Below are positions 30,001 to 33,000 of a stretch of 64,000 bases of DNA, piece by piece. The stretch's first letter is position 1. Each line of letters opens with the position of its first letter. The position numbers are program-made. Source of the DNA: Escherichia coli (GTDB lineage Bacteria > Pseudomonadota > Gammaproteobacteria > Enterobacterales > Enterobacteriaceae); NCBI RefSeq assembly GCF_013315695.1, contig NZ_CP054353.1; one strand, given 5' to 3'.

Positions 30001-33000
30001 GTAGAGAATCGCATCTTCCATCCCCAGGAAGGCCGCCAGTTTTTGTTCAAGCTCTTTATGGCTGTCCTGAGTGCCGCAAATAAAACGCACCGAAGCCATG
30101 CCGAAACCGTGAGAATCCATTCCCGCCTTTGCCGCCGCAATCAGATCCGGATGATTCGCCAGCCCGAGATAGTTGTTGGCACAAAAGTTAATGACGTGGC
30201 TTCCATCAGCCACAGTGATATCTGCTTGCTGCGCAGACGTAATAATGCGCTCTTCTTTAAACAACCCTTCCGCCCGTGCGGTTTCCAGATCGTTGGTTAA
30301 CTGCTGATAAAATTCTCCACGCATTGCGATTCTCCAGACAGGGCAAATTCCAGCACATATTACCCAAACTTATAGGTCGCGACGAGATGACGCGTTAACA
30401 CTTCTGCAAAATTCAGGATAAATAACGTCCATCAATCTCACTTTTGGCGAATGGCTGAAGCCAACGCCGTGTAGTGATATGATAGAAGTATTCGTGTCTG
30501 AGATTGTCTCTGACTCCATAATTCGAAGGTTACAGTTATGATCATCGTTACCGGCGGCGCGGGCTTTATCGGCAGCAACATCGTTAAAGCCCTGAATGAT
30601 AAAGGCATCACCGATATTCTGGTGGTGGACAACCTGAAAGACGGCACCAAGTTTGTGAACCTGGTGGATCTGGATATCGCGGACTATATGGATAAGGAAG
30701 ACTTCCTGATCCAGATTATGGCTGGCGAAGAGTTCGGCGATGTCGAAGCGATTTTCCACGAAGGCGCGTGCTCTTCCACCACCGAGTGGGACGGCAAGTA
30801 TATGATGGATAACAACTATCAATACTCCAAAGAGCTGCTGCACTACTGTCTGGAGCGCGAAATCCCGTTCCTGTACGCCTCTTCCGCAGCCACTTACGGC
30901 GGACGCACTTCCGACTTTATTGAATCCCGCGAATATGAAAAACCGTTGAATGTCTACGGTTACTCAAAATTCCTGTTTGATGAATATGTTCGCCAAATCC
31001 TGCCTGAAGCAAACTCGCAGATTGTTGGCTTCCGTTATTTCAACGTTTATGGACCGCGTGAAGGCCATAAAGGCAGCATGGCGAGCGTCGCTTTCCATCT
31101 CAACACCCAGCTTAATAACGGTGAATCACCGAAGCTGTTCGAAGGTAGCGAGAACTTCAAACGTGACTTCGTCTATGTGGGCGATGTGGCAGATGTAAAC
31201 CTGTGGTTCCTGGAAAATGGCGTTTCCGGCATCTTCAACCTCGGCACCGGTCGTGCGGAATCCTTCCAGGCAGTAGCAGATGCTACACTTGCTTATCACA
31301 AGAAAGGCCAAATCGAATACATTCCATTCCCGGATAAACTGAAAGGCCGCTACCAGGCGTTCACTCAGGCAGATCTGACGAATCTGCGCGCGGCGGGTTA
31401 CGATAAACCGTTCAAAACCGTTGCCGAAGGCGTAACGGAATACATGGCCTGGCTGAATCGTGACGCATAAGAGCTCTGCATGAAAATACTGGTGATCGGC
31501 CCGTCTTGGGTTGGCGACATGATGATGTCGCAAAGTCTCTATCGCACGCTCCAGGCGCGCTATCCCCAGGCGATAATCGACGTGATGGCACCGGCATGGT
31601 GCCGTCCATTATTATCGCGGATGCCGGAAGTTAACGAAGCGATCCCTATGCCTCTCGGTCACGGAGCGCTGGAAATCGGCGAACGCCGCAAACTGGGTCA
31701 TAGTCTGCGTGAAAAGCGCTACGACCGCGCCTACGTCTTACCTAACTCCTTCAAATCCGCATTAGTGCCTTTCTTCGCGGGTATTCCTCATCGCACCGGC
31801 TGGCGCGGCGAGATGCGCTACGGTTTACTCAACGATGTACGCGTGCTCGATAAAGAAGCCTGGCCGCTAATGGTGGAACGCTATGTGGCGCTGGCCTATG
31901 ACAAAGGCATTATGCGTACAGCACAAGATCTGCCGCAGCCATTGTTATGGCCGCAGTTGCAGGTGAGCGAAGGTGAAAAATCATATACCTGTAATCAGTT
32001 TTCGCTCTCATCAGAACGTCCGATGATTGGCTTTTGCCCCGGAGCGGAGTTTGGTCCGGCAAAACGCTGGCCACACTACCACTATGCGGAGCTGGCAAAG
32101 CAGCTGATTGATGAAGGTTATCAGGTGGTTCTGTTTGGCTCGGCGAAAGATCATGAAGCGGGCAATGAGATTCTTGCCGCTTTGAATACCGAGCAGCAGG
32201 CATGGTGTCGGAATCTGGCGGGAGAAACACAGCTCGATCAAGCGGTTATCCTGATTGCAGCCTGTAAGGCCATTGTCACTAACGATTCTGGTCTGATGCA
32301 CGTTGCGGCGGCGCTCAATCGTCCGCTGGTTGCGCTGTATGGACCAAGCAGCCCGGACTTTACGCCGCCGCTATCCCATAAAGCGCGAGTCATTCGTCTG
32401 ATTACCGGCTACCACAAAGTGCGTAAAGGCGATGCCGCAGAAGGATATCACCAGAGTCTGATCGACATTACTCCCCAGCGCGTACTGGAAGAACTCAACG
32501 CGCTATTGTTACAAGAGGAAGCCTGACGGATGCGGGTTCTGATCGTTAAAACATCGTCGATGGGCGATGTTCTCCACACGCTGCCCGCACTCACTGATGC
32601 CCAGCAGGCAATCCCAGGGATTAAGTTTGACTGGGTGGTGGAAGAAGGGTTCGCACAGATTCCTTCCTGGCACGCCGCCGTTGAGCGAGTTATTCCTGTG
32701 GCAATACGTCGCTGGCGTAAAGCCTGGTTCTCGGCCCCCATAAAAGCTGAACGCAAAGCGTTTCGTGAAGCGCTACAAGTAGAGAACTATGACGCAGTTA
32801 TCGATGCTCAGGGGCTGGTAAAAAGCGCGGCGCTGGTGACGCGTCTGGCGCATGGCGTAAAGCATGGAATGGACTGGCAAACCGCTCGCGAACCACTGGC
32901 AAGCTTGTTTTACAATCGTAAGCATCATATTGCAAAACAGCAGCACGCCGTAGAACGCACCCGCGAACTGTTTGCCAAAAGTCTGGGCTATAGCAAACCA

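Follow-up and report, generated by a model that had tools for sequence, protein, structure and literature searches.

In Escherichia coli K-12 MG1655 (NC_000913.3), kbl (b3617) and rfaD (b3619), the latter also called hldD, are separated by an interval of 1435 bp that holds htrL (yibB, b3618), an 858-bp gene lying on the minus strand, which is kbl's own strand. A sequence-only reading of the DNA analysed here had tentatively placed htrL between kbl and hldD in K-12, and the MG1655 gene order bears this out. The sole Pfam match of K-12 HtrL is to PF09612 (HtrL_YibB, function unknown; 435.9 bits), and no solved structure is related to HtrL by sequence below E = 0.2. The HtrL_YibB family is also represented in other bacteria, at loci for LOS and LPS (PMC4172580), and htrL has been listed in a pangenome study as a variable, accessory gene of the waa cluster (PMC8303582). 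The K-12 htrL cassette is self-contained and approximately 1.25 kb long, running from a predicted promoter through the coding sequence to a predicted terminator. The htrL strand carries a promoter-like site, TATACA-18-TATAAT, which is the one given for htrL in a genomic SELEX study, and a terminator hairpin with a 14-bp stem lies directly past the htrL stop codon. The G+C content of the K-12 insert is 36%, well below that of kbl (54%) and of both rfaD and the DNA analysed here (50% each). H-NS binding is recorded for the K-12 spacer between htrL and hldD (PMC3946193), and such an association fits foreign AT-rich DNA. Apart from the genomic SELEX tables, literature searches on hldD promoters yielded nothing usable.

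The locus that we describe lies in a 64-kb stretch of E. coli DNA (64,000 nucleotides of contig NZ_CP054353.1), referred to here as the window. In the window, kbl, encoding glycine C-acetyltransferase, occupies 29128..30324 on the minus strand (398 aa; NCBIfam TIGR01822, 746.7 bits, full length). It is the first gene of the kbl-tdh operon, with tdh (28093..29118) and waaH (26820..27854) behind it, and it is also annotated as kbl in NZ_OZ547117.1, which is 100% identical to the window over a 1,101-bp probe. On the plus strand, hldD (rfaD), encoding ADP-L-glycero-D-manno-heptose 6-epimerase, occupies 30538..31470 (310 aa; NCBIfam NF008360, 677.5 bits, full length) and is the first gene of hldD-waaF-waaC, being followed by RfaF (31480..32526) and then RfaC (32530..33510). 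The complete divergent intergenic region is thus 30325..30537, exactly 213 bp where the sequence-only reading had given about 213 bp, and since this length is a deterministic reading of gene positions, chance plays no part in it. A mechanical ORF scan (at least 30 aa) found no ORF wholly within the spacer. Two ORFs that reach it, 30370..30843 and 30438..30650, both on the minus strand, are antisense to hldD, and these are the antisense shadow that the same reading had described; two further ORFs, of 36 and 40 aa, touch the spacer by overlapping the 5' end of kbl. No HtrL homologue was detected across the whole 64-kb window by tblastn with K-12 HtrL as the query (E ≤ 1e-5), and no RNA family was detected in 29800..31000 by an Rfam scan (E ≤ 1). 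Past waaC there is an O-antigen ligase-like gene (33580..34833, minus strand; Pfam Wzy_C, without an NCBIfam match), and in the identical genome this gene is followed by a GT2 gene and an α1,2-galactosyltransferase gene, which is the R1 core-type layout. The waa cluster of the window strain therefore departs from that of K-12 well beyond htrL.

Alignment of this region with the K-12 interval by blastn showed that K-12 does not share the short spacer. Window positions 29900–30428 match positions 4128–4656 of the K-12 locus (L001) with 98.7% identity, and window positions 30490–31000 match L001 5940–6450 with 97.7% identity, so that a stretch of 61 bp in the window corresponds to 1283 bp in K-12. 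On the right, ~37 of the 61 bp are a diverged homologue of K-12 sequence (GGCTGAAGCCAACGCCGTGTAGTGATATGATAGAAGT in the window versus GGCTGAAGGGATTCGGATGTGATGGTATGATTACAGAC in K-12), and the unmatched part of the window is thus just ~16–24 bp, around 30429–30452. The htrL-linked hldD promoter-proximal variant, GGCTGAAGGGATTCGGATGTGATGGTATGATTACAGAC, was not found in the window, and the variant found in its place is common to E. albertii and Citrobacter. The only similarities between the window-specific 61 bp and htrL, 23–25 nt long and internal to the gene, are at chance level, and they were rejected as remnants. There is no deletion scar in the form of remnants of htrL or of the cassette ends, and the junction sequence of the window exists in E. 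albertii.

An alignment of 27 Enterobacteriaceae spacers made with MAFFT divides the region into two conserved halves (30325–30427 and 30447–30537) flanking a weak centre (30428–30446). The kbl-proximal block (30325..30428, minus strand) is common to K-12 (L001 4553–4656) and closes with the conserved box CAGGATAAATAACG; from position and conservation, we infer that the ribosome-binding site of kbl lies within its 104 bp, along with the promoter of kbl-tdh and its regulatory sites. The central spacer of ~19 bp (30428..30446) is the least conserved part, as judged by the conservation profile and the junction comparison. The 91 bp beyond it, on the hldD side, open with the hldD promoter-proximal block (30447..30489, plus strand), which contains the conserved GGCGAATGGCTGAAG box and then an extended −10-like sequence, TGATATGAT (30475–30483); htrL-bearing strains carry a diverged homologue of this block instead, which in K-12 reads GGCTGAAGGGATTCGGATGTGATGGTATGAT. 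The hldD 5' leader of ~50 nt (30490..30537, plus strand), with the Shine-Dalgarno sequence AAGG, is common to K-12 (L001 5940–5987). A simple consensus scan called no σ70 promoter or terminator site in the window spacer at the thresholds used, and the promoter assignments therefore draw on conservation and on the general promoter consensus. Judged by this organization, the window spacer is most likely the ordinary divergent control region of kbl-tdh and hldD-waaFC.

RfaD of the window was compared with one genome per species, which gave 80 loci, mostly from Enterobacterales and including Pasteurellaceae and Photobacterium, and Tdh, Kbl, HtrL, RfaD, and RfaF were placed in each of them by tblastn. 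The nearest outgroup evidence comes from E. albertii and Citrobacter, E. fergusonii and Salmonella not being among the 80 loci. kbl adjoins rfaD in 62 of the 80, and 61 of these 62 are without htrL; the sole htrL-bearing locus is that of Enterobacter sp. Ag1 (L029), with an HtrL of 81% amino acid identity in an interval of 1439 bp. The kbl–rfaD gap is 213 bp in E. albertii and in a second E. coli, 214 bp in Citrobacter, 215 bp in Enterobacter cloacae, E. asburiae, Phytobacter, and Pluralibacter, and 216 bp in Kluyvera and Pseudocitrobacter; more distant genera (e.g., Yersinia, Serratia, Photorhabdus, Pantoea, and most Erwinia) have longer gaps, mostly of 228–306 bp. The 213 bp of the window fit the range of 212–218 bp seen in 26 other aligned Escherichia/Enterobacteriaceae loci, and in the MAFFT alignment the window spacer is colinear end to end with those of E. 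albertii, Citrobacter, Enterobacter, and Kluyvera, with like conserved blocks. In the central piece, E. albertii has CCATCTCCCTCACTTT where the window has CCATCAATCTCACTTT, and Citrobacter and the window are nearly identical in their hldD promoter-proximal sequence. The outgroup gaps, the colinear alignments, and the conservation profile together identify the htrL-less 213-bp allele as ancestral.

The reverse order of events, with htrL as the ancestral state of E. coli and its deletion in the window lineage, would accord with the presence of the gene in K-12, O157:H7, and O104:H4, which belong to different phylogroups and so show htrL to be old and widespread in the species. Such a deletion would nevertheless have had to remake exactly a 213-bp spacer of the outgroup type, including the central piece that E. 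albertii has and the form of the hldD promoter that Citrobacter conserves, and the window contains no remnant of the gene; the low G+C content of the htrL segment (36%) and its presence in just 1 of the 62 loci with kbl beside rfaD also argue against an ancestral htrL, and we regard this history as very unlikely. The lineage of the window could also once have had htrL and have returned to the ancestral allele later, by recombining with a strain that lacked the gene. Taking the evidence together, we are confident that the window spacer is an intact, vertically inherited divergent promoter region, that htrL was never in this allele, and that the K-12 segment was horizontally acquired. The observations behind this explanation are the positions of the genes, the junctions, the frequencies of the alleles in the population, the state of the outgroups, the base composition, and the missing transposon ends. 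The sequence-only reading was accordingly right that this locus is htrL-less, but the "absence" that it described is no loss: the window has the ancestral majority allele, and K-12 has an insertion. Because K-12 represents the derived state here, a "missing htrL" should not be taken as a loss or as the marker of an unusual strain, a practical point for gene-content comparisons in which K-12 serves as the reference.

The frequency of the two states was assessed in 5,426 complete E. coli genomes with a 1,101-bp probe made up of the end of kbl, the spacer, and the start of rfaD. The probe matched 5,424 of the 5,426 genomes and did so at one contiguous place in 3,465, and the K-12-specific 1283 bp had matches in 1,959 genomes, chromosomal every time. 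These two numbers add up to exactly 5,424, indicating a clean two-state polymorphism in which the window state accounts for 64% and htrL for ~36%, and the suggestion that this is a strain-variable trait is thus upheld. The complementary counts, which are not a genome-by-genome proof, imply that the htrL-less genomes do not have htrL elsewhere. They bear in the same way on the idea that htrL has moved to another place in the genome of this particular strain, outside the window: the visible DNA comprises 64 kb of that genome, but the 1,959 htrL matches equal the 1,959 non-contiguous genomes, leaving no room at megablast sensitivity, and searches of plasmid and phage records found no genuine htrL carriers, so that we attach next to no weight to a relocation. 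The single plasmid match, NZ_CP141089.1 (PLSDB), is a 4.9-Mb E. coli record and evidently a chromosome. Two unannotated Campylobacter phage records, MG065686.1 (25436–26290) and MG065691.1 (147833–148687), carry a sequence 100% identical to K-12 htrL, which most likely stems from E. coli contamination or a chimeric record and was set aside, and Xanthomonas jumbo phages have HtrL homologues of ~25% identity.

With a shorter, 116-bp probe (30385–30500, ≥80% coverage), the window-type junction was found in 2,982 complete genomes. An assembly or collapse artefact as the source of the short interval is barely conceivable, given that the same junction recurs in 2,982 independently completed genomes and in outgroup species. 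By subtraction (3,465 − 2,982), a second contiguous type accounts for ~483 genomes and was seen in strain AR435 (L004 6426–6638), where the spacer is likewise 213 bp and htrL-less and has a kbl-proximal half nearer to that of Citrobacter than to that of the window. In AR435, which has an R2-like core, rfaD is annotated as 981 bp, compared with 933 bp, and the start of rfaF lies 80 bp later (L004 6639–7698); this strain suggests an imported block across the start of the waa region. Overall, the presence or absence of htrL at kbl–hldD is an ordinary polymorphism that was already known, and there is nothing unusual in the window itself.

The distribution of htrL was also set against core type and phylogroup in seven representative strains. 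The gene is present in MG1655 (K-12 core) and in O104:H4, the O157 strain 180-PT54, and STN0717-11 (all R3 core), and it is absent from the window and its 100% match AF3 (R1 core), from the BL21(DE3) derivative BLK16 (R1 core), from ST131 (K-12-type core, waaL–waaU–waaZ), and from AR435. K-12 and BL21, which belong to the same phylogroup, A, differ in this respect, K-12 having htrL and the BL21 derivative lacking it, and among these seven strains htrL is therefore tied to no single phylogroup or core type. The core-type names are our reading of the annotated gene sets, following Heinrichs et al. (1998). The lack of a single-type pattern agrees with the description of the gene as strain-variable, both in the sequence-only reading and in the pangenome study (PMC8303582). 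Two further strains show local changes of another kind. In the O157 strain 180-PT54, waaH is annotated as a frameshifted pseudogene (L087 2891–3926). In E. coli PKF8 (L003 3044–4266), waaH is truncated next to an IS1, none of the genes tdh, kbl, and htrL is left, and of a K-12-type htrL–rfaD segment just the final 218 bp survive, as if IS1 had mediated a deletion in a strain of the htrL type.

The K-12 cassette occupies the position of the poorly conserved ~19 bp (window 30428–30446) between the divergent promoter regions. A repeat search of L001 4553–5987 found no terminal inverted repeats and no target duplication in the K-12 segment, which contains no transposase, htrL being its sole gene; with no repeats at the junctions and no transposase, insertion as a transposable element is not supported. 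An 11-nt inverted pair, GATAAATAACG/CGTTATTTATC (L001 4645–4655 and 5771–5781), comprises the conserved left-junction box and a perfect inverted copy of it upstream of the htrL promoter. This pair may be a chance occurrence in AT-rich DNA or a duplicated regulatory site; it was rejected as a set of transposon ends, being so short that chance suffices to explain it.

In K-12 and the other htrL-bearing E. coli, a horizontally acquired segment of ~1.28 kb, low in G+C, thus replaces ~16–24 bp at the centre of the spacer and, next to them, ~37 bp of hldD promoter-proximal sequence. Besides htrL with its predicted promoter and terminator, the segment contains a diverged version of the replaced hldD promoter-proximal sequence, and it probably moves between lineages, evidently between genera, through recombination in the conserved flanks. 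In the simplest mechanism, crossovers would fall within the conserved box on the kbl side and where rfaD begins, and the segment may travel jointly with the nearby waa core-type genes or in parallel with them. How the segment recombines and in which direction it was transferred is, like the promoter assignments, what we infer from the comparisons reported here. Movement between genera is suggested by Enterobacter sp. Ag1 (L029 4562–6000), which has the htrL cassette at the same site as K-12, its htrL being 76% identical to that of K-12 at the DNA level. The tdh, kbl, and rfaD genes of Ag1 are Cedecea-like, with 91–94% DNA identity to C. neteri, which is itself a short-spacer species; the 100 bp upstream of rfaD in Ag1 share 86% identity with K-12, and no match to them was detected in Cedecea. 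Since this rfaD-proximal stretch is K-12-like, the exchanged unit takes in the hldD promoter and leader, and the sequences thus suggest that an htrL cassette including the rfaD leader has passed between genera.

Other cargo is found at the same spot. In Citrobacter youngae (L075 4399–6000), a gene for a 383-aa GT4 glycosyltransferase lies in the same central spacer on the kbl strand, and in a Plesiomonas MAG (L074) a TetR-family gene lies between kbl and rfaD. The unconstrained centre between the divergent promoters thus seems able to accommodate cargo on repeated occasions. A more specific and distinctly tentative idea, which we would sooner doubt than accept, is that the ~19-bp centre is a recurrent docking site for single-gene LPS-accessory cassettes, such as htrL in E. 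coli and the Cedecea-like strain or the GT4 gene in C. youngae, which would be exchanged between genera of the Enterobacteriaceae through recombination in the conserved flanks, along with their own version of the hldD promoter. If that were true, heptose and inner-core synthesis could be regulated differently in strains with and without htrL.

Among the closest known systems, K-12 and the window share the flanking genes, their divergent orientation, and 104 bp on the kbl side and 48 bp on the hldD side at ~98% identity, but K-12 has the htrL cassette and a diverged hldD promoter-proximal piece, with 1283 bp in place of 61 bp and an interval of 1435 bp instead of 213 bp. The C. youngae interval resembles that of K-12 in having a single gene of cargo that is oriented like kbl and bounded by the same conserved boxes; its cargo belongs to Glycos_transf_1/Glyco_transf_4 and not to HtrL_YibB, and the window is free of cargo. 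Strains with an R1 core, BLK16 among them, have a 116-bp junction identical to that of the window and are also alike downstream, where a minus-strand ligase gene is followed by a GT2 gene and then by an α1,2-galactosyltransferase gene, and they show no relevant difference from the window at kbl–hldD. Finally, the spacers of E. albertii, Citrobacter, Enterobacter, and further Enterobacteriaceae share with the window a length of 212–218 bp, the order of the blocks, and a gene-free interior, and they differ from it by point substitutions alone, which cluster in the central ~19 bp.
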